Notes: generated by a model from the letters alone, not told the origin. A stretch of DNA of 64,000 nucleotides from an uncultured Candidatus Saccharibacteria bacterium (GCA_964479005.1 CAYZJA010000001.1:250225-314224); one strand, 5' to 3'. Shown: positions 4,588-47,706, counted from the stretch's first letter. Translations and numbers: made by a program.

Positions 4588-6501
4588 TCATTGTTTCTCC
4601 TCAAAATCAGCATCTTTAGCATCTTTATCTTCCTTATCATCCTTGTCATTCTTATCTGTTTCTTTTTCTTCTGATTTAGTTTTTTCCTCTTCTTGCTTTT
4701 GTTGTTGGTAAAGATGAGTTCCTACTTCTTGTAATGATTGCGACAATTCTTCGGTTTTTGTCTTTATAACATCAAAGTCATCATTTTTCAGCACTTCTTT
4801 TAATTCTTTGGCTTTATCTTCTATTTTAGCTTTTAAATCTGCTGGAACTTTTTTACCTGCGTCTTTTAAGGTTTTTTCTGTAGTATAAACCAATGATTCT
4901 GCATTATTTCTTATTTCAATATTTCCCTTTTTCTTTTCATCTTCTTCTCTATGTAATTCTGCTTCTTTTTTTAGTTTTTCTACTTCTTCTTTTGACAAAC
5001 CTGAAGATCCCTCAATGTGAATGGATTGCTCTTTTCCAGTAGCTTTATCTTTAGCAGTAACATTTAAAATACCATTAGCATCAATATCAAAAGTTACTTC
5101 AATTTGAGGAATACCGCGAGGAGCAGGAGGAATGCCATCTAATATAAATCGCCCAAGAGATTTGTTATCAGCAGACATTGGTCTTTCTCCTTGAAGCACG
5201 TGGATTTCTACTGATGTTTGATTTTCTGCTGCAGTGGAAAATATCTGGCTTTTAGCAACCGGAACAGTAGTATTTTTGGAAATTAAAACAGTATTCACTC
5301 CACCCAACGTTTCTATGCCCAAAGAAAGAGGAGTAACATCTAAAAGTAAAACGTCCTTCATTTCGCCACCTATAATGCCGGCTTGAACAGCTGCCCCAAT
5401 TGCAACTACTTCATCTGGATTAATTTCTTTATTTGGTTCTTTGTCAAATAATTTTTTCACTTCTTCTTGAATTTTAGGCATTCTTGTTTGCCCACCAACT
5501 AAAACTATCTCTTCTATATCAGAAACCTTCAGTTTACACTCTTTCATCGTTTTTTTAGTTAAATCAATTGATTTTTTAATATAATCATCAACTAATTCTT
5601 CTAATTTGGAACGGCTTAGACTATAAGAGAGGTGCTTTGGACCAGAAACGCCAGAAGTGATAAACGGCAAGTTAATTTCCACTTGCATTGTTGAAGATAA
5701 TTCTTTCTTTGCTTTTTCAGCCGCTTCTTTAATTCTTTGTAAAGCCAAAGGGTCTTTATGTAAATCTATATTTTCATCACGTTTAAAACTTTCTATAACC
5801 CAATCCATTATTTTTTGGTCAAAATCATCTCCCCCTAAATGCGTATCTCCACCCGTTCCTTTAACTTCAATGGTCTCAGGAGTAACATCAAGAATAGAGA
5901 TATCAAAAGTTCCTCCTCCAAAGTCATAAACAACTATCTGATGATCTTTCTTTTTATCCAAGCCATAAGCTAAAGCAGCTGCTGTTGGCTCATTTATTAC
6001 TCTCTTTACATTAAAACCAGCTATTTCTCCAGCGTCCTTTGTCGCTTTTCTTTGGCTATCATCAAAATAAGCGGGACATGTTATTACTGCGTCTGTAATT
6101 TTTTCTCCTAATTTTGCTTCAGCGTCTGTCTTTAATTTCTGTAAAATCATAGCTGAAATTTCCTGAGGTTTATACCAACGTTCGCCCATTTTTATTTCTA
6201 CTCCGTTATTGGCACCTTCTTTAATTTCGTAGGAAAGAAGATCCTTGTCTTTTTGAACAATTGAATCAGAAAACTTCCTTCCAATTAATCTTTTAACAGA
6301 ATAAACCGTATTTTGAGGATTTGTAATAGCTTGGCGGCGAGCCAATATCCCAGTTAATCTTTCACCTGTCTTAGAAAAAGCTGCTACTGATGGAGTAGTT
6401 CTTTCACCTTCAGCATTTTCAATAATTTTGGGTTGGCCACCTTCTATAGTAGCCATTGCTGAAAAAGTTGTTCCTAAGTCTATACCTAATACTTTTGCCA
6501 T
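4588..6501 (-). CDS. dnaK: molecular chaperone DnaK (Hsp70)
   Basis: N-terminus [14 protein letters not shown]; DxGGGTFD; acidic K/E/D-rich C-terminal tail. Confidence 0.95.
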
Positions 6502-25366: not shown

Positions 25367-25858
25367 TTAATCTATCGCCCCCATGCATCTCCAATTTATT
25401 GATGCTTCTTTTGTTATAACATCAATAACACACGCAGGATTACAACCTTCTTTTTCAATATCCAAATCTATCCACCAAGTCCCAGTATCTTGATTACATA
25501 TACTAGGTTCTTTAAGCCTATCGCCGCATTCACTATTTATAGCAATTTGTTTGGCATCAGCCAAAGTTAATAATTCTTGTGTGTCTTTTTTGCTGCAAAA
25601 TTCTTCTATGAATGTCCTGCCGCCAGATGTTTCACATTGGCGAGGATAAGATTCAAGAATAGGATTACCGGCCTCTACACATTCTTTAAAAGTAATTAAT
25701 TCGTCCACAGTATGATCATCATTAATAACAGAATCATTATTTCCTTCTGGTACTGTCCCAACATCAGGTGTTGATGTTGAATTATAAACCCAATAACCTA
25801 ATATTGCGATTATTATTATGGCAAGAACCATGATTATTGTTTTATATGTTTTAGGCAT
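25367..25858 (-). CDS. hypothetical membrane-anchored Cys-rich extracytoplasmic protein
   Basis: N-terminal TM anchor, 10 Cys in soluble part. Confidence 0.4.
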   Translation of the reverse strand: MPKTYKTIIMVLAIIIIAILGYWVYNSTSTPDVGTVPEGNNDSVINDDHTVDELITFKECVEAGNPILESYPRQCETSGGRTFIEEFCSKKDTQELLTLADAKQIAINSECGDRLKEPSICNQDTGTWWIDLDIEKEGCNPACVIDVITKEASINWRCMGAID

Positions 25859-26867: not shown

Positions 26868-27548
26868 TTAATCTGTGTATCGTTTTTTAATATAACTTAA
26901 AATCTCTAAAGCCCCATGACGATTGCCTCTCCCAACTGGAAAGTAACAAGGCAAAACTTTGTATATCTTACCTAAAACATTAACTGATTGAATGGGCTGA
27001 TAAGAATTACCTCTGATTCTTTCCAAACAATCTTTTAGACGAATGTCTTTGCCTGCTATCATCCTTACAGGAAGCTTTCCAAAGGCAATAATATATTTTG
27101 GCAGAACTATATTTATTTCTTTTTGTAATAAGAGAAAATCTTGCTTCATTATATCTTTACTGGGGCTATCTGGATTATATTTAGTACATTTAACTAAATT
27201 AGTGATATAGACATTATTATTTATCAAACTTTGCTCAATCCTACTTTCATCATGAATCTGCCATCCTTTTTTGTAAATATCATCTATTATTTTTTTATCT
27301 AAAAAACCTGCTTCTGATAAAAAACGGTAGAAATAACGAACTCCTATAAAAGGATATCTTCTCTTTCCTTTATAATCTTTATGACTTGATAGATTAAGAT
27401 GGGTTGGATTAATAAAAAGAAAAAGAAATTGGGGATTTTGGAATTTACCACCACCTAAAATATGTAAAAGTGGATTATTTTCCTTTTTACACCTCTTACA
27501 ATTATCAAATTCCTTATAAATCTTTGATAACTTTTGTGGAATTTTCAT
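26868..27548 (-). CDS. divergent UDG-superfamily protein (family-4-like fold with altered motif A)
   Basis: Collinear with the canonical family-4 UDG at 28187: CKRCKK Cys pair, FLFLFINPT in place of GEAPG, VYITNLVKC, AFGKLP. Confidence 0.5.
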   Translation of the reverse strand: MKIPQKLSKIYKEFDNCKRCKKENNPLLHILGGGKFQNPQFLFLFINPTHLNLSSHKDYKGKRRYPFIGVRYFYRFLSEAGFLDKKIIDDIYKKGWQIHDESRIEQSLINNNVYITNLVKCTKYNPDSPSKDIMKQDFLLLQKEINIVLPKYIIAFGKLPVRMIAGKDIRLKDCLERIRGNSYQPIQSVNVLGKIYKVLPCYFPVGRGNRHGALEILSYIKKRYTD

Positions 27549-27564
27549 ATTATTTGTATTCTAT

Positions 27565-27592
27565 CAAAAAATCGCCTTTAAGGCGATTTTTG
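27565..27592. terminator. bidirectional rho-independent terminator AAAAAATCGCCTTTAAGGCGATTTTTG
   Basis: 8-bp GC-containing stem flanked by A/T runs. Confidence 0.8.
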
Positions 27593-27609
27593 TTAACTTG
27601 AGTTACTAT

Positions 27610-27852
27610 CTATCTCTTTTTATAAATTTTACTGCTTCTATGTTCTATGCTTAAAATCTTTATAGAGTCATCTGTTTTGTAAATAATAATACGCATATCG
27701 CCTTTACGAATACGAAAAATATCCTTTCTTCCTTTTAATTTTTTCAAGTCTAAATTGCGAAAGTTATTTCTTTCTATCCGAAGAAGAATACTCTTGAGTT
27801 TTTGTCTTTCTTTAAACCCTAATTTATTTAATGCTTTCTCAATCTTATCCAT
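27610..27852 (-). CDS. RelE/ParE-family type II toxin
   Basis: 80 aa; ...KKLKGRKDIFRIRKGDMRIIIYKTDDSIKILSIEHRSSKIY matches RelE/ParE C-terminal pattern (yRiRvGdyRiiY...i..i.hRkdvY). Confidence 0.6.
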   Translation of the reverse strand: MDKIEKALNKLGFKERQKLKSILLRIERNNFRNLDLKKLKGRKDIFRIRKGDMRIIIYKTDDSIKILSIEHRSSKIYKKR

Positions 27853-27861
27853 GAAGTATAG

Positions 27862-28074
27862 TTATAGGCGTTGAAGCAATTCTTTCAGACTAATTCCTCC
27901 TTTTTTAATTTTAGTAAAGTCTATCACTTCTTCCCAATACTCTTCGTCAATTGGAGAAATTTTAAATAATGGTTTTGACTTTTTAAAAACCATAAAAGAG
28001 TGCCCTCTTTTAACTTTTTGGGCATATTCTTGCATATTTTCTCTCAAACTTTTAAGATTAATGATATTTTCCAT
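27862..28074 (-). CDS. Phd/YefM-like antitoxin (partner of the RelE/ParE toxin)
   Basis: 70-aa protein immediately upstream with 9-nt gap; size, position and pattern (...RGHSFMVFKKSKPLFKISPIDEEYWEE) consistent. Confidence 0.5.
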   Translation of the reverse strand: MENIINLKSLRENMQEYAQKVKRGHSFMVFKKSKPLFKISPIDEEYWEEVIDFTKIKKGGISLKELLQRL

Positions 28075-28186
28075 AATTATAAGTTAAACTTAAACTTACC
28101 TTAAGTTTACCTTATTAAAATGCTTTGTCAAGTTTTTATTATTAAGTGTATTGAACTATAAAATGTACAAATTAAATTGTCTGGCA

Positions 28187-28783
28187 TTATTTAAATTTTT
28201 TTAAAATTTGAAAATCCTTTTGTAAAACTTCTTTCATATTTGGATTGTAAGTTGCTACAGCTGGATGGTAGAATGGAATAATTTTTATACTTTGGAAAAG
28301 AATTTTTGCTTCAAAAACTTTTCCGTGAATTTTGCTAATTGGTTCAATTACATCCTTCAAGCCAAACTTCTCCATTAAAAATTCCATTGAATATCTACCC
28401 AAAGAACAAATAACTTTTGGCTTAATCATTTCAATTTGTCTTTCTATATAAGGAACACAAGCTTCAATTTCTTCTTTCTGAGGGTCACGATTTTCAGGAG
28501 GTCTGTCTTTTAAAATATTGGTAATGTAAACATTTCCTCTTTTGATACTGACTGAATCCAAAAGGTCATCCAAAATTCTTCCTGCTGCTCCACAGAAAGG
28601 TCGGCCAGTTTTAGCCTCCTGGAGTCCTGGCGCTTCACCAATAAATATTATTTTTGCTTGATGATTTCCTTCCCCAATTACTGGATAGAATCCACTTTTA
28701 ATCCGTTCTTCATAAAGAGAGCATTTTTTGCAATTTATAACCTCGTCCCTAATTTTTCTAAGCTCTGTTTCTAAATCTTTCAT
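28187..28783 (-). CDS. uracil-DNA glycosylase, family 4
   Basis: CKKCSLYE + GEAPG (FIGEAPGLQEAKTGRPFCGAAGRILD), VYITNILKDRPPENRDP, HP motif near C-terminus. Confidence 0.85.
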   Translation of the reverse strand: MKDLETELRKIRDEVINCKKCSLYEERIKSGFYPVIGEGNHQAKIIFIGEAPGLQEAKTGRPFCGAAGRILDDLLDSVSIKRGNVYITNILKDRPPENRDPQKEEIEACVPYIERQIEMIKPKVICSLGRYSMEFLMEKFGLKDVIEPISKIHGKVFEAKILFQSIKIIPFYHPAVATYNPNMKEVLQKDFQILKKFK

Positions 28784-28818
28784 AATTTAATTAAACTTTA
28801 ATTGTTTCTCCTGCTTTT

Positions 28819-29007
28819 TTATTGACTCCTCTTTTTGCCAATAGAAATGCCTAACCAGATACCAAGACCAAATAGTTCAATACCACCTAATATGGCATCG
28901 ATTGTTGGTGAAAAAAAGTAACCTGTGTCGGACATTAAAAATCCAATTAATTGGACAATAACTATAACCACTATAATTGCTATTATGATGCATGTTTGTT
29001 TTTTCAT
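28819..29007 (-). CDS. hypothetical small 2-TM protein
   Basis: 62-aa hydrophobic ORF preceded by the island repeat motif. Confidence 0.35.
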   Translation of the reverse strand: MKKQTCIIIAIIVVIVIVQLIGFLMSDTGYFFSPTIDAILGGIELFGLGIWLGISIGKKRSQ

Positions 29008-29057
29008 AACTAAATTATATCACAAATTTGGGTCGGCGACCGAATTAGATAGCTCCG

Positions 29058-29086
29058 GGAACTGGACGATGTTAGAACCTGTTTTA
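29058..29086 (-). repeat. island repeat motif copy 1 (GGGAACTGGACGATGTTAGAACCTGTTTT)
   Basis: Identical 29-mer also at 31399-31427; partial copies at 30777-30794 and 32250-32265; ~50 nt upstream of start of ORF 28819..29007. Confidence 0.85.
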
Positions 29087-29151
29087 TGTAGAAAAACGGG
29101 ACCACCAAATTTCGTGCCAGCGAAACTAGCACGCTGCAGTTCCCCACTAAA

Positions 29152-29928
29152 TCACTTAATTATAAGAGGACCAATTTCTTCAGTAATGAACGGCGTTGAC
29201 TCACTGAAATTATCTCTATTTATTAAAAGGAATGAGTTAGCAACTCTTTTACTTTCTCTGTCAAACTCAATTACTATCAAATTTTGACTGTAAATTCTGA
29301 TAACAGTTTTATTTGAGTTTAGTCCCAATAAAACGAAGGATTTCTGATTTAATGCTTCGCTCCTCCCCATATTGAACGCAATTGAAAGTAAAACAAGAGA
29401 TAGAAATAAGAATTGAAAAATTGAACGACCTATTTTTTCAATTATTCTACTGAACAAATCATTGGATATAACTTCTCTTTCAATTTTTTCTTGTGCTAAA
29501 AATTTTTCTTCCAATGTTTTTTTATCTTTTTGGAAAATAAATGGCCACAAAAACTCAATCATTAAAAGAACTGCTGCCACAATTAAAAGCCATAACGATT
29601 GTTTCCATGCTGTTTTGTAGATTAAAACCATAATAACTGCGTACGCCGTATACATTAAAGCAAAATTTCTACTTCTGCCAAGAGCCGTTTTAGTATTTAA
29701 TAATCCCATTTGTGAAAAGATATTAAGCACAGTCAATAATAAAAACATCATTCCTAAGGTTGCTACCGCAGCAATTAAGATATTTGTTAAATTTAACTCT
29801 ATTAATTGTGTAGGAATATGAAAATAACTTAAATATCCATACTCATAAAAGAAGGCCATCAAATAACCAAGTAATGAAGAGATTGCGACTAAGACAGCAC
29901 CTGAAATAAAATTATAATTTTTATTCAT
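29152..29928 (-). CDS. hypothetical membrane protein (N-terminal TM domain, C-terminal soluble domain)
   Basis: ORF only. Confidence 0.4.
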   Translation of the reverse strand: MNKNYNFISGAVLVAISSLLGYLMAFFYEYGYLSYFHIPTQLIELNLTNILIAAVATLGMMFLLLTVLNIFSQMGLLNTKTALGRSRNFALMYTAYAVIMVLIYKTAWKQSLWLLIVAAVLLMIEFLWPFIFQKDKKTLEEKFLAQEKIEREVISNDLFSRIIEKIGRSIFQFLFLSLVLLSIAFNMGRSEALNQKSFVLLGLNSNKTVIRIYSQNLIVIEFDRESKRVANSFLLINRDNFSESTPFITEEIGPLIIK

Positions 29929-30016
29929 TGTCTAAGATTGAATATTGGATAATTTTTTAACTAGCCTATCATTTAATAAAAATCTTCAAATTATAGTTAT
30001 GTATTTAACCAATTAA

Positions 30017-30721
30017 CTATATAAATAGAATTCCGGATAAATATTGAGCTAGCATGAACAATAAACAAGAGATCAAAATCATTATATTTAATACCTTAAT
30101 CGTTTTTATTATATTCAGACTAAATAATATACTAAGAAAAGTATAATAAGACATGTAAAGCATGACTAATAGAGAATAAAAAGGTTTACCGAGTATAAGG
30201 ATTGTAAATATGTAGCCTAAGACGCCAGCCATTATGTCTAAAAGTATCAAAATTAGTTTTTTCTTTTGTGGATACGCTAGTTGTAATTTAAGAGCGAAGT
30301 ATACAAGAAAATAAACAGTTATAATAGCTATAGCAACTGAATTATAAAGGAAAATTAATCTTAATTCATTAGCAAAAACACTCTTTATAAATGAAAACAA
30401 ACTACCTAAGAATATAATAATTCCAATACTTAATATTATGCCACCGATTGCATTCTCAAAAAGATTATCGACTGAGGTTTTGGCATATCTAATCCAGAAA
30501 TCAATAATGCAGTAGCCAATAAGTAACCCAAAAATTAACAGCAACAGGCATTGCAACATTCTCAGCGATTCAGTTTGATACTGATTTATTTGTAGAAATA
30601 AACTAGCTATGATGCCTGTAAATCCAATTATATCTATTAGCCATTTTCTATCAGAATAATATAATTTGAAGATTTCTTTTGGTCTAGATATTATTTCTCC
30701 CATTTTCTCATCACGTCTCAT
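30017..30721 (-). CDS. hypothetical polytopic membrane protein
   Basis: ORF only; preceded by island repeat. Confidence 0.4.
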   Translation of the reverse strand: MRRDEKMGEIISRPKEIFKLYYSDRKWLIDIIGFTGIIASLFLQINQYQTESLRMLQCLLLLIFGLLIGYCIIDFWIRYAKTSVDNLFENAIGGIILSIGIIIFLGSLFSFIKSVFANELRLIFLYNSVAIAIITVYFLVYFALKLQLAYPQKKKLILILLDIMAGVLGYIFTILILGKPFYSLLVMLYMSYYTFLSILFSLNIIKTIKVLNIMILISCLLFMLAQYLSGILFI

Positions 30722-30776
30722 ATAATTTATATTAATTGATTAAAATCATTCTAATTTCTTATTTATAATCACCTAT

Positions 30777-30794
30777 TGGAATAAACAATGTTAG
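30777..30794 (-). repeat. island repeat motif copy 2 (partial: AATGTTAGAACCTGTTTA)
   Basis: Shares core GTTAGAACCTGTTT with copies 1 and 3; ~58 nt upstream of ORF 30017..30721 start. Confidence 0.7.
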
Positions 30795-30810
30795 AACCTG
30801 TTTAGTGGAT

Positions 30811-31341
30811 TCAATTTAAAATTTGTCCTAAACCTTTCCAGGCTTTCAGTAAAAAATTAATTAATCCTAAATAATATTCACTCAAAAGAAAACCAAAAAG
30901 AACACTGAGAATTGCGACTTTAATTATTAAGTGAATATTCTTAAGTTCTTGCTCTTGTTTTTCTGTCTTATATCCTCTTTTTTTATAATCAAATAACTCC
31001 GGCTTCACTTTTAACATTAGTCCGTAAATTTTTTCAAATTCTTCTTCTATCCAGTTAAACCTATCAATATCTTTCTGCACTTCTCCAAAATCAGGTATAG
31101 CTACTGAATGTTTAGTTATTTTTTCCACTAATTCCTGGTCAATAAGAAACTTAACTGTATAAACAACATCCTCTAATGGCTCTAACGAATTTTTATTATA
31201 TTTGTGAAGAGGAAGTCCCTCTTTTAATTCTTTTTCTACAAAATAATTTAAACCTTCTTCATTCAATAAACGATAAACAAGGGCTTCTCTTTTTTCTAAT
31301 AATAAATTAATAAAATCTTCGTTTATCTTCATATTATCCAT
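30811..31341 (-). CDS. hypothetical protein with C-terminal TM anchor
   Basis: ORF only; preceded by island repeat. Confidence 0.4.
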   Translation of the reverse strand: MDNMKINEDFINLLLEKREALVYRLLNEEGLNYFVEKELKEGLPLHKYNKNSLEPLEDVVYTVKFLIDQELVEKITKHSVAIPDFGEVQKDIDRFNWIEEEFEKIYGLMLKVKPELFDYKKRGYKTEKQEQELKNIHLIIKVAILSVLFGFLLSEYYLGLINFLLKAWKGLGQILN

Positions 31342-31398
31342 ATTCTACCAAAAAACCGCCTCTTTTACGAGACGATTCTTCTTAAAAAAATCCGCTCT

Positions 31399-31427
31399 GG
31401 GAACTGGACGATGTTAGAACCTGTTTT
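31399..31427 (-). repeat. island repeat motif copy 3 (GGGAACTGGACGATGTTAGAACCTGTTTT)
   Basis: Identical to copy 1; ~57 nt upstream of ORF 30811..31341 start. Confidence 0.85.
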
Positions 31428-31460
31428 GGATAATAAAAATCTACAACATATAGTAAATCT

Positions 31461-31778
31461 TCAATTATCTTTGGGAATTTTTATTGTCTTTTTCCCTCTT
31501 TCCTTTCTCTTTTTTTTTGACTTTCTTCCACTCAATGCCCATTCAAGCCATTCTTTTTTCTCTATTCCAGACTGCCTGATCATTGTTCTAAGAGTTAATT
31601 CTGGATAAGACTTCGCATTTGTATTAAAATTTATTTCTACTATTTTATCATCTCCACTACTAATCCAAACCTTCCAATCATCATGAGAACCATCTTTAGA
31701 TTTAAAAAAACTAAAACCGTGAGATTTTAGAAAATTAATAACATCTTTATATGACCAATTACGAAATCTTCTTGGCAT
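31461..31778 (-). CDS. HicA-family toxin (YcfA-like mRNA interferase) with K-rich C-terminal tail
   Basis: ...FLKSHGFSFFKSKDGSHDDWKV... (GSH motif) and ...TLRTMIRQSGI match HicA pattern. Confidence 0.6.
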   Translation of the reverse strand: MPRRFRNWSYKDVINFLKSHGFSFFKSKDGSHDDWKVWISSGDDKIVEINFNTNAKSYPELTLRTMIRQSGIEKKEWLEWALSGRKSKKKRKERGKKTIKIPKDN

Positions 31779-31787
31779 AACTTAAAA

Positions 31788-32150
31788 TTAAGCCAAACAA
31801 CCAACCAAAGCAGGAATGGAGTTAGGGTTGTATTTAAGTTGCTTAGCCGATTCCAACCTGACTCGTGTAAGCTTTTGTTCTTTAATCTTTTTCTGAAATT
31901 CAAAATATTTATCCCAAAACTCTTGGGGTGCATAACGATTTAGTAAATCATCAGAAAGTTGTTTTCTGCAAACAGTTTTAAGATGAAGAATAGCTGCCTC
32001 TTCTACACTTTTCATTACTTCAATTGAGTTGTCACCTTCTTCAATAATATCAAAAGTAAGACAGACTCCAACGAATTTATCTCCACTTGAATAACCAAAA
32101 AATTCCATTAAACCTCTTCGTTTAGTGTTTTTAGGTCTCAATATTTTCAT
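31788..32150 (-). CDS. HicB-like antitoxin candidate
   Basis: Adjacent upstream of HicA; FVGVCLTFDIIEEGDNSIEVMKSVEEAAILHLK resembles HicB N-terminal (RNase H-like) pattern; weak. Confidence 0.4.
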   Translation of the reverse strand: MKILRPKNTKRRGLMEFFGYSSGDKFVGVCLTFDIIEEGDNSIEVMKSVEEAAILHLKTVCRKQLSDDLLNRYAPQEFWDKYFEFQKKIKEQKLTRVRLESAKQLKYNPNSIPALVGCLA

Positions 32151-32249
32151 TTTTAAAAATTAATTAAAATAGATTGTTTAAAGTATAACAATACAAGTCA
32201 ATAAGTCAATATCTGATAAATCGTCAGAAAATGTCCTTAAGAAGGTATG

Positions 32250-32265
32250 GCTGGACGAAGTTAGA
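32250..32265 (-). repeat. island repeat motif copy 4 (partial: CTGGACGAAGTTAGAA)
   Basis: Partial match to copies 1/3; ~97 nt upstream of HicB-like ORF start. Confidence 0.5.
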
Positions 32266-32323
32266 ATTCATATTTCTTTAGGATTCCAATTTCCATCTTT
32301 ATCGAAATCACTTGTTCAAATAT

Positions 32324-33565
32324 TTACAAAATGGGATTTTTCTTTTCTAGTAAATCCTTAACTGTGATTAGCCTTATTTCTAACTCCTTCTTATTTTTAA
32401 TCCTTGCTACTTCCTCGTAAGCACCCTTAGTAAAACTAAAAGCTACAATATAACCCTTTTTATAATTTGCCCTTTTTAGGGCAGTCTCAAAATTATCTAT
32501 AACATTACGCCCTACTTTATCAGACTGCTTTACCTGTATTCCTGCTTCTTCAGTTAAAACACTCCTTGGGTAATAACCATCTAGCCCCATATCCCCAACT
32601 TTCTTTCTGCTCGCATTAGCCCTCATTTTGTCTATCACTACCCAGTTTTGAAACTCAAAAGGTTCTAATTTTTTTACTTCCTCTATTGTAGTCGGCATAC
32701 CAATCACTTCATAATCAATACCCTCTATCGTTCCTAAAGTTTTTCCTAATCTTCGTTGCATTATCTTGATTGCTGTTGGTGAAATATCTATTCCTATCCA
32801 CCTTCTACCCAATCGTTGAGCTACAGCTACTGTTGTTCCGCAACCACAAAAAGCGTCTAAAACTATATCATTTTTGTTTGAGGACGCCTCTATTATTCTT
32901 TTTAAAAGTGCTTCTGGTTTTTGGGTGGGATAACCTACTCGCTCTTCTGCCATTGGATTTATTACGGGTATATTCCATACATCTTCCACCATTTTCCCTA
33001 ACGGATTACCTTCCCACTTATAGACTTTCTTTTTTCCACCTGGTCTTCTAATAGCGACTTCGTCTTTTAGTTCTCGGCAGTATTCTTCCTTAAGACTCGG
33101 TTCATTATAATTAAAAGTCCAATTATCTCCTTTTGTATAAAAATAAATTGTATCGTGTTTTCTTGGAAACCTTGTTTTACTTTGTCCGCCGCCCTTATAA
33201 GCCCAAATAATCTCATTTCTAAAATTTTCTACCCCAAATATCTCATCTAACATAATTCTTATATGAGCGTTGGCATGCCAATCGCAATGTATGTAAAAAG
33301 AGCCTGTAGATTTCAATATCTCATACAATGCTTGAACTCTTGGTTTAAGCCAACTAATATAATTTTCTGTTCCGCCCTCCCATCTATCTTTAAAACTTCT
33401 AATCTCCGCCTCATCGCCAAATACAACTTCATACTGTTTATGAGTAAAAAATGGCGGGTCAATATAAATCAGATCTATACTCTCTTTAGGAAGTTTAGCT
33501 AACTCTTCTAAATTATCGCCGCAAATAAGTTTGTTAATCTGCCAAAGTTTATTCTGATTAGACAT
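32324..33565 (-). CDS. beta-class N6-adenine/N4-cytosine DNA methyltransferase (orphan, no adjacent restriction enzyme)
   Basis: Motif IV IYIDPPFF near N-terminus; motif I VLDAFCGCGTTVAVAQRLGRRWIGIDIS near C-terminal half. Confidence 0.85.
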   Translation of the reverse strand: MSNQNKLWQINKLICGDNLEELAKLPKESIDLIYIDPPFFTHKQYEVVFGDEAEIRSFKDRWEGGTENYISWLKPRVQALYEILKSTGSFYIHCDWHANAHIRIMLDEIFGVENFRNEIIWAYKGGGQSKTRFPRKHDTIYFYTKGDNWTFNYNEPSLKEEYCRELKDEVAIRRPGGKKKVYKWEGNPLGKMVEDVWNIPVINPMAEERVGYPTQKPEALLKRIIEASSNKNDIVLDAFCGCGTTVAVAQRLGRRWIGIDISPTAIKIMQRRLGKTLGTIEGIDYEVIGMPTTIEEVKKLEPFEFQNWVVIDKMRANASRKKVGDMGLDGYYPRSVLTEEAGIQVKQSDKVGRNVIDNFETALKRANYKKGYIVAFSFTKGAYEEVARIKNKKELEIRLITVKDLLEKKNPIL

Positions 33566-33568
33566 AGT

Positions 33569-33718
33569 AGGGATGGGTTTTAATTTTTATGCTTATATTT
33601 ACTGGCTGGAAACACAAAGCTCCCCGCCAACGACAACCTTTCGGTCGCCCTATACCTTTCGGTATAGACCCATCCCTGAGCTCTGACGAGGAGCTTAATA
33701 TCAGGGATGGGTTTTTTA
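33569..33718. other. GC-rich structured element: AGGGATGGGT (x2, direct) with intervening ACCCATCCCT, nested hairpin CTATACC-TTTC-GGTATAG, ending in stem + T6
   Basis: 12-bp perfect stem ACCCATCCCTGA/TCAGGGATGGGT (33668-33712) followed by TTTTTT; upstream copy at 33569-33578 could pair alternatively. Confidence 0.55.
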
Positions 33719-33910
33719 TGCCATATCCTATATTAGAACTTAGGCAACTTTGATTATTTAGTTTTTACAATTAAAGAATAACATAAATTGATAAAAAGGG
33801 AAGCAGAATTGTACCCTCGTTAATTATATTAATCAATCACCATTTTAGCTTTATTTAGTCATATTTTATTGCTAAAATAGGGTTGAATAAGACATAATTA
33901 TATTATTTAT

Positions 33911-34744
33911 ATGACTGACAAAAAAATGCAAGGATGGCTCTCAGAGGCTAAAAATCCTAAAATAGAGCAAACAATAAGACTTCTAAAAATTAATAAAGAA
34001 TTTTTAAAGGATGTAGCTGTTTTACGAAAAAAATGGCCTAGTTTTATAGAAAAACATAAAACAGCAATAGATAAAATTATAATAGAACTAATAAAAATGG
34101 CTTATCAAGGATTCTTGAAGAAAGAAAAACCTTCCGATGTCGTTGAAAAAGCAAAAAAAAAGAATTTATTTCGCTCTGAAGAGCCAACTAAAGAAAATCT
34201 CTTTACCGCCAACACTAAATTTAATCAAGATATATTAGATCTATGTGAAAAATACAAACTCTATCCTATTAGTCTTTGGCGATATAGGGTAGCTATTTTT
34301 ATTGTAACTAATGATTTTTCTATTTCTAATAAATTAGCAGGAATGGATTTAGCAAAATATTTATCTCCAGAAGAAATAAGCCAAATTCCTGAAGATATGA
34401 ATTTTAGTCTTAAAATCGAAAAAAATAAAGATACCAAGGAACTAGAGTTATTCATTCAAGTATATGAAACTACATCTTTACGAGATTTGAAAAAATATTG
34501 GCATATGGTAAAACATTCTCAAGATAAGCTAAAAAAGGCCAAAAAGATAGACAAAAGATACTATCCTAAAAAAGGTCTAGAAACTGCAGAAAAGTTATTC
34601 ACATTAGATAAAACTAAATCAAAGTCTGATTGGGAAAAACATGATGCTATATATGGAGAACCTACTTCTTCTAGTAAAAAAGACGGGGAAAAAGAAACCA
34701 AAAAAACTAAAAATTTAAAAAGAATTAGGTATCGATATAAATAG
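33911..34744 (+). CDS. hypothetical Lys-rich protein
   Basis: ORF only; terminated by hairpin at 34808-34832. Confidence 0.4.
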   Translation: MTDKKMQGWLSEAKNPKIEQTIRLLKINKEFLKDVAVLRKKWPSFIEKHKTAIDKIIIELIKMAYQGFLKKEKPSDVVEKAKKKNLFRSEEPTKENLFTANTKFNQDILDLCEKYKLYPISLWRYRVAIFIVTNDFSISNKLAGMDLAKYLSPEEISQIPEDMNFSLKIEKNKDTKELELFIQVYETTSLRDLKKYWHMVKHSQDKLKKAKKIDKRYYPKKGLETAEKLFTLDKTKSKSDWEKHDAIYGEPTSSSKKDGEKETKKTKNLKRIRYRYK

Positions 34745-34807
34745 ATTTTTAAATTCGTAATTTGGGCTCATATCTTGAGACCAGTTTAAATTAGCAATTT
34801 TGTATAA

Positions 34808-34837
34808 TAACTCCAGAGATAATCTGGAGTTTTATGT
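34808..34837 (+). terminator. rho-independent terminator AACTCCAGA-GATAA-TCTGGAGTTTTAT
   Basis: 9-bp stem + T-run downstream of ORF 33911..34744. Confidence 0.7.
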
Positions 34838-35001
34838 TATTAAGCAAAAAAGCAATTAAGGAATTTAAAACGATCTATACCCGAAAATTTCATCAGGATA
34901 TAGATGACAAAACTGCTCAGGAAATGGCTAAAAGGCTCCTCCTGCTCTTTAAAATTGTCTATAAGCCCCCAACTAATAAACAATCAACTAAATATGACTA
35001 A
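34834..35001 (+). CDS. hypothetical 55-aa protein (MLLSKKAIKEFKTIYTRKFHQDIDDKTAQEMAKRLLLLFKIVYKPPTNKQSTKYD)
   Basis: Manual translation; below ORF-track cutoff; stop overlaps ATG of next ORF in ATGACTAA arrangement. Confidence 0.25.
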   Translation: MLLSKKAIKEFKTIYTRKFHQDIDDKTAQEMAKRLLLLFKIVYKPPTNKQSTKYD

Positions 35002-35290
35002 CGATAAATCTTATAATAATCTTAAAAAATGCCCTCGTTTTGATAGGTGCAATCAAAATTTATGTCCTCTTGATATAAGGCTTTCATTAAGAATCGGAGG
35101 ATCTGCTGAAAAATGTCGCTGGATGAGACCCCCTTCGAAGAAAACTATTCATGGTAAGGTCTTTATATCAGGAGGGCAGGTTATGCCAGATGGTTTATTG
35201 AATTTTGTGCCTGAGAGCAATTTAGAGTGGCTTAATACCCCCTCTAAAAAAAGATGGTTAGAAATTAAAAAAAATGAAACAAAATCCTAA
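34994..35290 (+). CDS. hypothetical Cys-rich small protein (CPRFDRCNQNLCPLD...)
   Basis: ORF-track entry 34904..35290 trimmed to internal Met that overlaps the preceding stop. Confidence 0.35.
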   Translation: MTNDKSYNNLKKCPRFDRCNQNLCPLDIRLSLRIGGSAEKCRWMRPPSKKTIHGKVFISGGQVMPDGLLNFVPESNLEWLNTPSKKRWLEIKKNETKS

Positions 35291-35795
35291 TACTAAATTG
35301 AAGCTTAGACCTTTACGTCTCAGGGGTGTCCCTTTTGCTTGGCAGGATACTAGATTAATCCCAAAAATCCGAGAGCATTTTCATAAAGAAAAGCTTACAA
35401 CTGCCCTTGCTTTATACTTTGTTTTAACAGAACTTGCTAGTATTGAAGGAAAAGGACAAGGAAAACATATAAATTGTTTAAAGGCATATCTAAAAACAAT
35501 AGCAGATCGTTGTGGTAAATCGGTATCAACAACCAAAAGATATCTCAAGGATTTTAAAAAATACAAAATTATATCCTGGAACAATCGTCGTAAAGGATTG
35601 ATGAATTTATCAAATGAATGGTTATTACTTCATTATTACCAGCCCACTAATGAACGTACCTCTATTCATAATGATAAACCTGTTATAAAGAATTATATAA
35701 AAAGAAGTTTTATTAATAATAAAAGGAATTATAAAAATGATAAAGATAAAGGGTTCGTTCCTATTAAGGAAATCATTGGCCGGAAGTATAAATAA
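35274..35795 (+). CDS. hypothetical basic protein with probable winged-helix DNA-binding region
   Basis: ORF only; ...TTALALYFVLTELAS...KSVSTTKRYLKDFKKYKII looks HTH-like. Confidence 0.35.
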   Translation: MKQNPNTKLKLRPLRLRGVPFAWQDTRLIPKIREHFHKEKLTTALALYFVLTELASIEGKGQGKHINCLKAYLKTIADRCGKSVSTTKRYLKDFKKYKIISWNNRRKGLMNLSNEWLLLHYYQPTNERTSIHNDKPVIKNYIKRSFINNKRNYKNDKDKGFVPIKEIIGRKYK

Positions 35796-35805
35796 GCTTG
35801 TAAAT

Positions 35806-36030
35806 TTAAGGGGGGGTATAGGGGGGTTCGCGCGCGCGAGGAATAATAAAAGATTTGCATAACAGTTGCAGTTGATTTTCATAAAGCAAAAGAGATATAA
35901 TAAAATATTGACCCAGATACCTCACAGGGAATCAATCTAGCGATAATGTCCTTAAAGGGGCGGTCTATACCAGTATTGCTGGATCCTTGTGAAACAGTGG
36001 GGCTGGGTCAATTATAGGCCGTCCCTTTAA
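35806..36030. other. GC-rich non-coding region upstream of recombinase: G7-TATA-G6, (CG)5 tract, and interleaved inverted repeats (TTAAAGGGGCGGTCTATA/TATAGGCCGTCCCTTTAA; TTGACCCAG/CTGGGTCAA)
   Basis: Read from sequence; right arm of the 18-bp imperfect dyad ends 10 nt before the recombinase ATG. Confidence 0.5.
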
Positions 36031-36040
36031 TTCTAAATTT

Positions 36041-37636
36041 ATGGAACAAATAACATCAAAAATTAAATATTTTCTTTATGCAAGAAAATCATCTGAATCT
36101 GAAGATAGACAGGTAGCTTCAATTGATTCACAAATAAAAGAATTAACTGGGGTAGCTAAGAAAGAAAAGCTAAAAATCATTGATGTTCTCACTGAATCTC
36201 AGTCAGCAAAGGCACCAGGAAGAAGCCAGTTTAATGATATGATCCAGAGAATCTCCAAAGGAGAAGCCCAGGGAATTTTATGTTGGAAGCTGGATAGATT
36301 AGCCAGAAACCCTATCGATGGCGGAAATATCATGTGGTTACTTCAGAGTAATACAATAAAACATATCAAAACATACAATAGGGATTATTATCCTACTGAT
36401 AATGTTTTGATGATGAGTGTAGAATTTGGCATGGCAAATCAGTTTATAAGAGATCTGAGTGAAAATACAAAGAGAGGGCTAAGAGCAAAGGCAGAAAAAG
36501 GATGGTATCCTACCTATGCCTCTTTAGGTTATATGCATAATCCTTTAAAAAGAAAAGGAGAAAAAGAAATTATTAAAGACCCGGAAAGGTTTGATCTTAT
36601 AAGAAAGATATTTGATTTAATGCTTACTGGTTGCTATACACCGCCTAAAATTTTAAAAATCGCTACTGAGAAATGGGGATTAAAAAATAAGCAAGGAGGA
36701 AAAGTTGCCAGAAGTACTGTTTATAGAATACTAACTGATCCATTTTATTATGGTCAATTTGAATATCCAAAAGAAAGTGGAAATTGGTATAAGGGCAAAC
36801 ATAAACTTATGATAACTCTAGAAGAATATGACAAAATTCAAATTTTACTTGGGAGAAAAGGTAAACCTCGATCTAAAACGCATACTTTCGCTTTTACCGG
36901 AATGATTAGATGTAGCGAATGCGAAGCAATGATTACAGCCGAAGAAAAAATTAAAATACAAAAAAACGGAAATATTCATAAATATATTTATTATCATTGC
37001 ACCAAGAAAAAAGATTCTCATTGCTCCCAAAAATCTATAGAACAAAAAGAATTAGAAAAACAAATCCTGGATATTTTGGGTGGAATTGAAATTCCTCCAG
37101 AATTTCATCAATGGGCAATGAAGTGGATACAAATTGAAAATAAAAAAGAAAGTAAAGCAAGGAACCAAATTATAGTAAACCATCAAGAAAGCTATAAAAA
37201 ATGTTTAAAGAGAATTGATAATCTTATTGATATGAGATCTGCTGAGGATATAACGAAAAAAGAATTTCTGAGAAAAAAATCGGAGTTAAGTCAGGAAAAG
37301 ATTCGATTAGAAGAATTACTCGCGGATACAGGAAACAGAATTAATAAACAATTAGAGAAAGCTGAGGAAGCATTTTTATTTGCTGAAAAAGCTAAAGAAA
37401 GATTTGAAAATGGAGACATCAAAGACAAAAAAGAAATTCTAACAGCCCTAGGTTCGAACCTCATTTTAAAAGATAAAAAGCTAAGTATAACAATACAAAA
37501 ACCACTTTTCCTTATTGAAAAAGTGGCCAAACAGGTTAAAGCAATTAATCAAAGGTTAGAACCTCTGAAAAACCGCATAACAAATAACGAATTGGAGGAA
37601 ATCTATCTTCAAAATCCTACGTTGCTCCGCGGGTAG
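36041..37636 (+). CDS. large serine recombinase (integrase-type)
   Basis: Resolvase catalytic domain with active-site Ser (YARKSSESEDRQVASIDSQ), recombinase domain, zinc ribbon (CSEC...YYHCTKK), C-terminal coiled coil; 3' end overlaps tRNA-Asn. Confidence 0.9.
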   Translation: MEQITSKIKYFLYARKSSESEDRQVASIDSQIKELTGVAKKEKLKIIDVLTESQSAKAPGRSQFNDMIQRISKGEAQGILCWKLDRLARNPIDGGNIMWLLQSNTIKHIKTYNRDYYPTDNVLMMSVEFGMANQFIRDLSENTKRGLRAKAEKGWYPTYASLGYMHNPLKRKGEKEIIKDPERFDLIRKIFDLMLTGCYTPPKILKIATEKWGLKNKQGGKVARSTVYRILTDPFYYGQFEYPKESGNWYKGKHKLMITLEEYDKIQILLGRKGKPRSKTHTFAFTGMIRCSECEAMITAEEKIKIQKNGNIHKYIYYHCTKKKDSHCSQKSIEQKELEKQILDILGGIEIPPEFHQWAMKWIQIENKKESKARNQIIVNHQESYKKCLKRIDNLIDMRSAEDITKKEFLRKKSELSQEKIRLEELLADTGNRINKQLEKAEEAFLFAEKAKERFENGDIKDKKEILTALGSNLILKDKKLSITIQKPLFLIEKVAKQVKAINQRLEPLKNRITNNELEEIYLQNPTLLRG

Positions 37637-37920
37637 GATTCGAACCTACAACCTACTGGTTACACCTAATCTCTAAGTTTCCTTAAAGGGTGGACTATAT
37701 CTTCACCTTGTCTGTTTAAAACAGATTTAGGTGTCTCGGTATCTAGTCTCTACGGCGCCCCCGTGTTATAACACAAGGTTCCCACGGTATTAGCATAGTT
37801 TGATATTATCAAACTTTAGCCTTCACCGTTATCCCGAGATGTTCATTCCAAGGTTTCCCCTGAAAGCTGCGAAATAGGAATCATCCACAGCCAGACGCTC
37901 TACCATTGAGCTACCGCGGA
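37625..37920 (-). tRNA. tRNA-Asn (anticodon GUU) interrupted by a ~224-nt group I-like intron in the anticodon loop; CCA not encoded
   Basis: 5' exon TCCGCGGTAGCTCAATGGTAGAGCGTCTGGCTGT (37887-37920) + 3' exon TAACCAGTAGGTTGTAGGTTCGAATCCTACCCGCGGAG (37625-37662) give cloverleaf with U1-A72, G73, loop CUGUUAA, T-loop GGTTCGAATCC. Confidence 0.7.
37663..37886 (-). other. group I (IC3-like) intron within tRNA-Asn
   Basis: Begins after exon U and ends with G; internal guide GCAGCU 17 nt in can pair exon GGCUGU (U.G at splice site); contains GUAGAGACUAGA...CACCUAA matching the J8/7-P7-P9.0 segment of Azoarcus/cyanobacterial tRNA group I introns; GGGGAAACC near 5' end. Confidence 0.6.
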
Positions 37921-37937
37921 ATGTTTTGATTATACTA

Positions 37938-47175: not shown

Positions 47176-47259
47176 AAATTCAAGATACCTTTAGTATCTT
47201 ATATTTTACCGCATGAAAGGAGGTAAAATTCAAGATACCTTTAGTATCTTATATTTTAC
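47176..47259. repeat. tandem direct repeat: 35-bp unit AAATTCAAGATACCTTTAGTATCTTATATTTTACC x2 (period 49), each with hairpin AGATAC-CTTTAG-GTATCT + T-run
   Basis: Perfect duplication read from sequence; copy 1 abuts lysS start codon, copy 2 overlaps greA stop; act as terminators. Confidence 0.85.
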
Positions 47260-47706
47260 CTCACCTTGAGGGGTATTTACAAGTACTATCTCTCCTTTTT
47301 TACAACTTAAAAACGCCCTGCCTAAAGGTGATTCATTAGAAATTTTACCTTCAATTGGCTTAGCTTCATGGGACCCAACAATAGTGAGCACCTTTTTATT
47401 TCTAGGTTTGGTTAAACTTTTTACCTCGATTGTTGAACCTAATTCTATAATAGAATTATTAGAAGCATGACGAATAATTGAAACATTTTTAAGAAACATC
47501 TCTAATTGCAAAATTCGCGTCTCTAAAACCGATTGCGCGTCTTTTGCCTCCTGATAGGCTGCGTTCTCTGACAAATCTCCAAGCTCTTTTGCATCCTGAA
47601 TTATTTCAGCTATTTCCTTTCTTTTTTTAGTTTTTAATTCTTCCAATTCTTTCTTGAGAACTTTATATGCCTGAGACGTAACATAGTTCTTACTCATATT
47701 CTTCAT
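47230..47706 (-). CDS. greA: transcription elongation factor GreA
   Basis: N-terminal coiled coil with acidic tip (ELGDLSENAAYQEAKD), C-terminal FKBP-like domain. Confidence 0.85.
   Translation of the reverse strand: MKNMSKNYVTSQAYKVLKKELEELKTKKRKEIAEIIQDAKELGDLSENAAYQEAKDAQSVLETRILQLEMFLKNVSIIRHASNNSIIELGSTIEVKSLTKPRNKKVLTIVGSHEAKPIEGKISNESPLGRAFLSCKKGEIVLVNTPQGEVKYKILKVS

Follow-up and report, generated by a model that had tools for sequence, protein, structure and literature searches.

What lies between the SPFH gene and dcd in the genome of an uncultured Candidatus Saccharibacteria bacterium, and how did it come to be there? The stretch that raises this question, hereafter the window, comprises 64,000 nt (GCA_964479005.1, CAYZJA010000001.1:250225-314224) of low-GC DNA (GC 0.315) from a tiny genome of the candidate phyla radiation (CPR), or Patescibacteria, a group whose mobile elements and ways of acquiring genes are poorly mapped. 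An original prediction, made from the sequence alone, had placed between these two flanking genes, both of which were found, a compact integrative element or prophage remnant bounded by the junction of a large serine recombinase (LSR) gene with tRNA-Asn. The region is indeed integrated mobile DNA at an LSR/tRNA-Asn junction, but it is composite rather than one compact element, and it is not phage-like. We consider it likely, as a single judgement covering all its parts, that the region represents an accretion island that has the 3' end of tRNA-Asn as its anchor and in which an intact LSR integrative element of a Patescibacteria-wide family (31394-37624) is accompanied by earlier, LSR-less arrivals, an older array of cassettes separated by the same half-site (27.6-31.4 kb). 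New here are a delimited integrative element with predicted attP and attB, and a family signature in the form of an LSR frame that ends either in a tRNA or in a P site.

The LSR contains all the domains that define serine integrases, namely resolvase (PF00239, 76.1 bits), recombinase (PF07508, 36.9 bits) and zinc ribbon (PF13408, 41.8 bits), the latter two above their cut-offs. It matches the phrog_95 integrase (2.4e-67) and the 3g13 recombinase catalytic domain (E 2e-9), and its N-terminus carries YARKSSESEDRQ, which holds the expected catalytic serine. As predicted, its last four codons overlap the 3' end of the minus-strand tRNA-Asn: the frame ends 12 nt inside the tRNA, with the stop codon within it. 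The family comprises 5992 relatives, mostly from Patescibacteria, and identity to the phage integrases in the collection does not exceed 28%. Together with the same gene module, the LSR recurs at 57-90% identity in different chromosomal neighbourhoods, and in every such locus it converges on a tRNA and overlaps its 3' end. The target is tRNA-Asn in the window, L007, L022, L146, L147 and L148, an intron-containing tRNA-Asn in L145, and tRNA-Gln in L005. This recurrence in unrelated neighbourhoods, together with the lack of the gene in the closest relatives, speaks for mobility and not for the conserved chromosomal gene that had been named as the alternative.

The C-termini of the family record the same junctions. 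Among the best 120 cluster representatives, the C-terminus is the translated reverse complement of a tRNA acceptor/T-loop end (..LLRG.DSN..) in about 93, the reverse-complement translation of the 32-nt motif described below (..DDVRTC..) in 18 and of another kind in 9. The raw script counts were 86/25/9, of which 7 of the 25 had matched an internal KVRTS block only and have tRNA-type ends. In its predicted excised form, the window LSR ends in ..LLWELDDVRTCFG, the ending of the 18 motif-type relatives.

The second component of the island is a repeated site. The 29-bp motif of the original prediction proved to be part of a 32-nt site, AACAGGTTCTAACATCGTCCA-N8-AGC, which lies on the same strand as the tRNA. 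Its 21-nt core occurs three times in the 64 kb, at 31405-31425, 29063-29083 and 30782-30802 (0, 0 and 3 mismatches), where chance expects 0.00; all copies fall within the island, as had been claimed. The motif and the tRNA end have GGTTC.AA and ..CCCG.GAGC in common, and the motif is 5 nt longer between them, so that GGTTC to AGC spans 28 nt in the motif versus 23 nt in tRNA-Asn. Serine integrases use attP and attB half-sites with a common outer motif, that of the zinc-ribbon domain, which lies 5 bp nearer the centre in attB (PMC3783163). On the strength of this rule and the 5-nt offset, we read the motif as a P-type half-site and the T-loop/acceptor strand of the tRNA as B-type; the sites of the window would then fit attP-versus-attB half-site geometry. 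A duplicated tRNA 3' end was also considered as the att repeat and ruled out: none is present in the window, and the far end carries the 5-nt-longer mimic.

Four types of junction delimit the element. The attB-like junction occurs in the LSR-free locus L040, where tRNA..GGAGC is followed by GGATATTTTTAAGAAAAATCG.., and the attP-like junction in L025, where motif..GGAGC is followed by ATCGTTGGACTTTG.. and runs into the LSR gene. At attL (window 31394), motif..AGAGC passes into GGATTTTTTTAAGAAGAATCG.., the right side matching L040 in 47/62 columns. At attR (window 37624), tRNA..GGAGC passes into AACGTAGGATTTTG.., the left side matching the tRNA end of L040 in 46/46 columns and the right side resembling the P' arm of L025 in 44/65 aligned columns (gapped). 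A further matching side reached 36/47, and non-matching sides lay at about 50%. From these junctions it follows that the element spans 31394-37624, or 6.23 kb. The shared core GAGC lies at 37624-37627 in attR, and crossover probably took place in or beside it. The predicted attP of the window element reads ..CATCGTCCAGTTCCCAGAGC then AACGTAGGATTTTGAAG.. and the predicted attB ..TCCTACCCGCGGAGC then GGATTTTTTTAAGAAGAATCG..; written as synthetic junctions, they are GTAACCAGTAGGTTGTAGGTTCGAATCCTACCCGCGGAGC then GGATTTTTTTAAGAAGAATCGTCTCGTAAAAGAGGCGGTT for attB and TTATCCAAAACAGGTTCTAACATCGTCCAGTTCCCAGAGC then AACGTAGGATTTTGAAGATAGATTTCCTCCAATTCGTTAT for attP. The sequence beyond attL, a former tRNA-Asn downstream region of B' type, contains a hairpin with a T-run and a promoter-like TAGAAT, leads into the gene for a 176-aa protein, and is also homologous to L107 6656-6746, upstream of a gene resembling uracil-DNA glycosylase (UDG).

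Close relatives provide the corresponding state without the element. In L040 and L072, the tRNA and its intron are 93-94% identical to those of the window (94% in L040) and no LSR element is present; it is likewise absent from L120, which represents the same population as L072, and from L107. In L040, L072 (with L120) and L107, short motif-separated cassettes follow the tRNA directly, and homology to L040 resumes right after attL. In L107, an array of 5.4 kb takes the place of the 10.8 kb of the window and ends with a motif remnant and the same leader, upstream of the UDG-like gene and SPFH. Presence and absence among close relatives, with defined boundaries, identify the element as integrated mobile DNA. 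The simple empty site that had been proposed, with tRNA-Asn followed directly by dcd, was not found: in GTDB genomes with relatives of the dcd region, synteny stopped at tRNA-Asn in 10/10 loci, and nothing downstream of the tRNA matched the window even by tblastx. It was the motif scan that supplied the LSR-free loci L040, L072 and L107.

We infer that this LSR catalyses the integration and that the element remains mobile today. The LSR would recombine an attP, consisting of the P arm AACAGGTTCTAACATCGTCCA-N8-AGC and a P' arm inside the 3' end of the LSR gene, with an attB formed by the T-loop, the 3' acceptor strand and the downstream terminator of the tRNA. Crossover in or next to the shared GAGC would leave the tRNA intact. 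After integration, the LSR frame would end inside the tRNA and the P arm would lie at the far end as attL, and such an attP x attB reaction would account for both attL and attR of the window. The segment at 27.6-31.4 kb would represent earlier arrivals whose LSR was lost or never present, with further P-arm copies marking their limits.

To determine how widely the site occurs, metagenome contigs were scanned for exact copies of the 21-nt core, which yielded at least 120 contigs; those listed, together with a single IMG/VR match (L024), make up the 121 loci to which all motif-survey counts refer. The conserved part comprises positions 0-21 and the AGC at 30-32, and nothing beyond. Two to ten copies are present in 60 of the 121 loci. 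Where a tRNA gene is found within 9 kb upstream, it shares the strand of the site and is Asn or Gln in nearly all cases, and the N8 segment varies accordingly: GGAG versus GCAG behind tRNA-Asn in 17 and 3 cases, and GCAG or CCAG versus GGAG behind tRNA-Gln in 19 cases and 1. Behind tRNA-His, in L036 and L112, N8 reads ..GACCC and resembles the acceptor end of tRNA-His; these arrays may constitute a third target class. With N8 following the target, the site rules are readable, and the family is a source of new tRNA-targeting serine integrases. L009 contains six copies of the site, and L005 carries it 9.3 kb from the LSR. In the Gln type, L066 and L101 share both flanks at 91-95% identity around islands of 3.5 and 11.3 kb, and the shared flank of L101 begins right after the last motif copy, following the same logic as in the Asn type. 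Used as a probe, the 21-nt core detects flexible arrays of genes downstream of tRNAs in at least 120 metagenome contigs, and the site apparently marks an undescribed way of collecting accessory genes in small cassettes. Searches of the literature, whose coverage was incomplete so that an earlier description is possible, found neither the motif nor the element family described, nor any LSR/tRNA islands of Patescibacteria. The sole literature match to the motif was an unrelated mycobacterial operator.

The LSR-less units could have arrived by either of two routes. Elements may have integrated repeatedly by the tRNA or into existing sites and then lost their recombinase parts; as expected from nested integration, the LSR adjoins a P site on the large contigs L025, L009 and L149. 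Alternatively, the units may be true cassettes, mobile on P/leader sites, a route favoured by the small uniform units, the preserved cores and the recurrent leaders and disfavoured by the lack of a conserved second half-site and of an observed circle; we know of no canonical serine integrase that recombines such sites. Taken as a general explanation, cassette mobility would resemble an integron, which we regard as possible, if somewhat doubtful. The LSR of a resident or visiting element would move single promoter-bearing cassettes, with the tRNA end in the role of attI and the 32-nt site in that of attC; each circular cassette, made up of one P-type half-site and a terminator-promoter leader, would recombine with the tRNA end or with another P site, and 27.6-31.4 kb would be a cassette array in its own right and not a set of decayed elements. 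Much of the survey agrees with this. Internal cassettes (n=144) are small, uniform and mostly single-gene (median 752 nt, interquartile range 505-1061); the longest open reading frame (ORF) is co-oriented with the site in 127/139 of them, at a median stop-to-site distance of 58 nt. Orientation is never mixed within a locus, even with up to 10 copies, and most copies of the core carry 0-2 mismatches although the cassettes are unrelated. The same cassette occurs in different arrays beside non-homologous neighbours (L117_1/L009_4, L028_1/L091_2, L075_3/L125_0 and L043_2/L082_1/L099_1), cassette contents vary widely (40 proteins cover 55 Pfam families), tRNA ends and motif copies are followed by the same types of post-core leader, and 16 arrays start within 1.8 kb of the tRNA and contain no LSR. 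On the other hand, canonical serine integrases recombine attP with attB only, and each site needs two specific half-sites (PMC3783163). Moreover, the sequence past the AGC is not conserved, no circular cassette was seen, an LSR homologue lies within the fetched flanks of only 3 of the 121 loci, and scars of this kind could also result if full elements integrated and excised repeatedly and deletions followed. A rather doubtful extension of the idea is that Patescibacteria possess an integron-like capture system of their own, run by an LSR that itself travels as one cassette, with the 3' end of tRNA-Asn, -Gln or -His as fixed acceptor; each cassette would consist of terminator, promoter, gene and a 32-nt attP-type half-site with its inner 8 nt tuned to the tRNA, and the window would hold an LSR unit plus three or four resident cassettes. 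If an LSR does act on single half-site cassettes, this would extend the known abilities of serine integrases and provide a second, independent solution to cassette capture.

The accretion island proposed here also has to be weighed against several results that count against it. Excised circles, empty-site reads and experimental recombination are all lacking for this population. Nor does the window contain a displaced copy of the tRNA 3' end: no second match to the 22-nt end was found at up to 3 mismatches. The P' arm overlaps conserved codons of the LSR gene, so its conservation could reflect coding. A search for the distal ends of the LSR elements of L007 and L145-L148 found no motif within 10 kb at up to 6 mismatches (a less strict regular expression was uninformative); the P arm is thus not shared by all members of the LSR family. 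The block at 27.6-29.0 kb has no terminal motif, and the left limit of the island is uncertain (26.8-27.6 kb). The antitoxins assigned to the island's two toxin-like genes lack support in profile searches (PhdYeFM E 0.085, HicB no match). Finally, the shift in composition that had been anticipated does not exist: GC is 0.313 in the island, 0.323 in the LSR element and 0.315 in the window, all inside the spread of equal-sized windows, and does not set the island apart from the genome. This last result would suit an ordinary variable region of the chromosome, with a domesticated recombinase and a 32-nt repeat acting as a terminator-associated or repetitive extragenic palindromic (REP)-like transcription or RNA signal, as would the many arrays with no LSR nearby and the position of the motif just downstream of genes, often followed by hairpins with T-runs and promoter-like hexamers. 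We nevertheless judge that explanation improbable. The LSR is missing in the closest relatives and present in unrelated neighbourhoods, and the motif, found in 64 kb only inside the island, marks precisely the distal boundary at which homology to an LSR-free relative resumes, varies in N8 with the upstream tRNA species and is run into directly by 18 LSR genes; it has neither dyad symmetry nor self-complementarity and no Rfam match. A prophage or prophage remnant at tRNA-Asn is highly improbable. It would explain a serine integrase beside a tRNA, small ORFs of no family and toxin-like genes with PHROGs matches, but no capsid, terminase, portal, tail or lysis gene was matched in PHROGs or Pfam, the PHROGs matches in the element and island being limited to integrase, replication-initiator-like and toxin families. 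In addition, the element measures only 6.2 kb, IMG/VR holds one motif copy and no LSR relative, and relatives bear primase, helicase and restriction-modification cargo instead of virion genes.

Searches for free forms gave the following picture. IMG/VR yielded no attP-type junction, and its single motif copy lies in the last 260 nt of L024, followed by a GC-rich, possibly structured stretch on a contig with neither LSR nor tRNA. No terminal redundancy was found in L021 and L149. The Logan contigs L002 and L003, with ends at 33631 and 37650, were examined as a discrete 4-kb unit and set aside, as they show no terminal overlap; the break at 37650 is uninformative on excision because the 3' half of the tRNA is common to co-occurring relatives. 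LSR/tRNA-Asn islands also explain assembly breaks at tRNA-Asn in these genomes.

Among known systems, the architecture is closest to the composite islands of the staphylococcal cassette chromosome (SCC), and it also resembles tycheposon islands at tRNA genes. SCC/SCCmec elements, mobilized by the LSRs CcrAB or CcrC, insert at the 3' end of one housekeeping gene, rlmH, and leave it active (PMC3900703, PMC5964201). An LSR, 3'-end insertion, tandem same-site units and units without a recombinase are all present here; each unit is bracketed by the same short integration-site repeat, and the parallel extends to restriction-modification cargo and to a helicase or replication gene beside the recombinase. 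The likeness is one of architecture. There is a single, only distantly related LSR gene instead of a ccrA/ccrB pair. The target is a tRNA (Asn, Gln or His) instead of rlmH, the hosts are Patescibacteria, the repeat is a 32-nt P-type half-site with a 21-nt invariant core, and units are mostly single genes of about 0.75 kb in contrast to 10-60 kb in SCC. Tycheposons of Prochlorococcus likewise comprise small cargo elements with a replication module that insert at tRNA genes of a streamlined host, and repeated integration pushes older units into the island, leaving degenerate units and repeated att remnants. However, tyrosine recombinases serve 910 of the 937 tycheposon elements, and the tycheposon repeats are genuine partial tRNAs (10.1101/2020.12.28.424599), whereas here the enzyme is an LSR and the repeat is a 5-nt-longer mimic of the tRNA end and not a tRNA fragment.

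Phage serine integrases (Listeria A118/LI, phiC31 and Bxb1; PMC3783163) share the domain set, the 5-bp offset of the outer motif, the very short core between sites and an integrase gene abutting attP. They differ in that the target here is a tRNA 3' end, identity is at most 28%, the integrase ORF extends across the crossover point, P-type half-sites form arrays, and some LSR genes lie beside a P site on large contigs. Integrons combine an IntI tyrosine recombinase with attI and with attC sites, imperfect palindromes conserved in structure and not in sequence. Like integrons, the arrays hold mostly single, co-oriented and diverse cassettes, separated by a site in one orientation, with a fixed start and shuffling between arrays. 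Nevertheless, the defining pairs of IntI with attI and of attC with its structure are absent and only the array of cassettes is shared: the sole recombinase is the LSR, arrays are anchored on tRNA genes, the site is conserved in sequence (21-nt core) and is not a folded imperfect palindrome, and cassettes appear to bring their own promoter and terminator. Classical tRNA islands of tyrosine integrases (Islander, PMC4383910) also insert in the 3' part of an intact tRNA gene with the integrase tRNA-proximal, but here the enzyme is a serine recombinase and no displaced tRNA fragment is found.

Table 1. Features of the island and its surroundings (window coordinates).
Feature	Coordinates	Strand	Evidence or remarks
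Flanking genes			SPFH on one side of the island, dcd on the other; Pfam
UDG-like gene (26868-27548) with remnant B'-type leader (27546-27577)	26868..27577	-	Relatives in L045 and L107
Variable block without terminal motif: 62-aa membrane ORF, UDG-superfamily gene (28187-28783), 70-aa ORF, RelE/ParE-like ORF (27610-27852)	27578..29007	-	
Older cassette: membrane ORFs of 234 aa (30017-30721) and 258 aa (29152-29928), GC-rich spacer, perfect P-type half-site (29052-29083)	29052..30721	-	
Older cassette: 176-aa ORF (30811-31341) with degenerate motif (30782-30802)	30782..31341	-	3 mismatches; N8-AGC lost
B'-type sequence, former tRNA-Asn downstream region	31342..31393	-	Aligned to L040 post-tRNA sequence
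attL, P-type half-site AACAGGTTCTAACATCGTCCA GTTCCCAG AGC, distal element end	31394..31425	-	Followed by sequence like L040 post-tRNA (47/62)
Cargo: 120-aa ORF (31788-32150) and HicA-like 105-aa ORF (31461-31778)	31461..32150	-	PHROG/Pfam
Cargo: beta-class N6/N4 DNA methyltransferase with Mrr_cat nuclease domain	32324..33565	-	PF01555 193 bits; PF04471 36.1 bits (cut-off 21)
LOOT RNA	33632..33746	-	RF03000 72.1 bits, gathering cut-off (GA) 46.4; 66 nt upstream of methyltransferase start codon
277-aa protein, first core-module gene	33911..34744	+	38-42% identical to L005_276 and L021_295, 28% to L009_253
55-aa protein	34834..35001	+	Homologue beside LSR in 8/9 other LSR loci
98-aa core-module protein	34994..35290	+	74% identical to L005_97, 60% to L146_99, 41% to L009_106
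173-aa winged helix-turn-helix (HTH) protein, replication-initiator-like	35274..35795	+	phrog_270, phrog_186 ~1e-4
Conserved hairpin ending 12 nt before LSR start codon	35954..36028	+	RNAalifold
Large serine recombinase, 531 aa	36041..37636	+	Resolvase, Recombinase, Zn_ribbon_recom domains
attR junction	37619..37646	-	tRNA 3' end ...GGTTCGAATCCTACCCGCGGAGC then AACGTAGG...
tRNA-Asn(GUU), integration target	37625..37920	-	Exon 1 37887-37920, group I intron 37663-37886, exon 2 37625-37662

The LSR element contains a HicA-like pair, a methyltransferase-Mrr fusion, a LOOT RNA, four core genes and the LSR. In LSR loci on long contigs, the plus-strand order of ~277-aa, ~55-aa and ~98-aa proteins, an HTH/replication protein and the LSR recurs. 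The 277-aa protein has no family match in Pfam, PADLOC or PHROGs. Homologues (53-73 aa) of the helical 55-aa protein occur in L005, L007, L009, L145, L146, L147, L148 and L149; it has no family match, and a homologue search returned 13 close relatives, none of them annotated. It is a candidate directionality factor or regulator. The 173-aa protein weakly resembles replication initiators and is 62% identical to a 202-aa protein of L005, and relatives carry primase and helicase genes at this position. Upstream of the LSR, the conserved hairpin of 19 pairs (RNAalifold) is kept in L021, L022, L005 and L009, two pairs showing compensatory changes, and possibly controls LSR expression. Nearby, at 35810-35841 (+), a G7-TATA-G6-TT-(CG)5 tract is kept in L021 and L022. 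In the 3' coding region of the LSR, the block AGGTTAGAACCTCT (~37553-37567, +) is conserved as DNA and read in two frames across the family (RLEPL versus KVRTS). Read on the minus strand as AGGTTCTAAC, it is identical to the 10-mer of the P site; it lies ~65-75 nt past the crossover and may be an accessory binding site.

To the left of the core module lies divergently transcribed cargo that differs at each locus and is mostly restriction-modification. In the window element the cargo is of defence or addiction type, comprising the methyltransferase-Mrr fusion and the HicA-like pair. The methyltransferase, the sole PADLOC match among the island proteins (MTase_II, 261 bits), had been described as an orphan without a nuclease partner. 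It carries a C-terminal Mrr_cat domain with GDMGLDG...IQVKQ residues and is therefore not an orphan but a methyltransferase with a predicted nuclease domain. Of the HicA/HicB-like pair, the toxin-like half matches the phrog_353 toxin family (1.9e-6), with a HicA_toxin score of 20.3 bits, below the GA of 27; the 120-aa ORF upstream of it has only a non-significant match, to the unannotated phrog_12841 (E 0.004). The LOOT RNA lies between core module and cargo. L145 has a second one (5375-5501, -, 83.8 bits) in the corresponding place; in both elements the RNA adjoins the first core gene on its left and lies 50-66 nt upstream of the nearest cargo gene on the minus strand. None was found in seven other LSR loci searched.

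Neither the 176-aa ORF (Pfam, PADLOC, PHROGs) nor the small and membrane ORFs already predicted to be orphans found a family match in profile searches. Both predicted UDG paralogs were recovered, the UDG itself (PF03167) at 115 bits and the divergent UDG-like gene at 36 bits. In the other predicted toxin-antitoxin pair, the RelE/ParE-like ORF matches the RelE-like phrog_1213 (3.7e-9), with ParE_toxin at 17 bits below the cut-off of 23. The UDG-like gene also stands beside SPFH in L045 and L107 (84% aa identity); because it is kept there, it is probably backbone or the oldest unit. Its leader in L107 is preceded by a motif remnant, and L045 has a motif copy between it and SPFH. In L120 the UDG comes after the last motif copy, and L107 lacks the whole UDG/70-aa/RelE-like block (27578-29007). 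From the junctions in L107, L120 and L045, the variable region extends from the tRNA to ~27.6 kb. The left limit originally proposed thus roughly fits the entire island but not the LSR element, which starts at 31394.

The integration target is itself interrupted. Neither ARAGORN nor Rfam at gathering score called a tRNA beside the recombinase; ARAGORN misses it because the gene is split after anticodon nt 35 by a group I intron of 224 nt. The insert scores 46.8 bits against RF00028, below the GA of 50 (E 1.8e-9). Exon 1 ends in ..CTGT, the intron ends in ..AGGTG, and the joined exons form a normal 72-nt tRNA-Asn that matches the intron-less tRNA-Asn of L011, L013, L016-L018 and L022. By these features the insert is a group I intron at 35/36, with splicing predicted, a site already described in Patescibacteria (PMC13011429). 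The tRNA-Asn of L040 has the same intron with ~300 extra nt. L015 carries a different insert at the same site, and L014 a small GIY-YIG ORF and a duplicated 5' tRNA piece upstream of an intact tRNA copy. In L013 (10250-10692), a different LSR with another C-terminal sequence also converges on tRNA-Asn, which may be a hotspot for more than one LSR lineage.

Over 21.6 kb, the window matches a 551,616-bp JGI metagenome contig with one mismatch, and its nearest GTDB relatives are Paceibacterota-type Patescibacteria metagenome-assembled genomes. The GC-rich non-coding peaks that had been noted are real and number four: 33591-33730 corresponds to the LOOT RNA, 35911-36020 to the leader of the LSR gene and 37821-37930 to tRNA exon 1 with the start of the intron; 29031-29150 falls in a spacer (29008-29151) whose fold is non-significant (z = -1.4). 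Promoter-like sites (69 versus 51.7 in shuffles) and terminator-like sites (7 versus 6.0) in the island do not rise above shuffled sequence. Outside the island, a 163-aa cysteine-rich, secreted-looking ORF (25367-25858, -) between SPFH and a 152-aa gene is missing in L107, a second small indel. An exact 35-nt direct repeat (47176-47210 and 47226-47260, 50-nt spacing) lies just upstream of an Asp/Asn-type tRNA-synthetase (tRNA-synt_2) gene, ~15 nt past the GreA stop codon.

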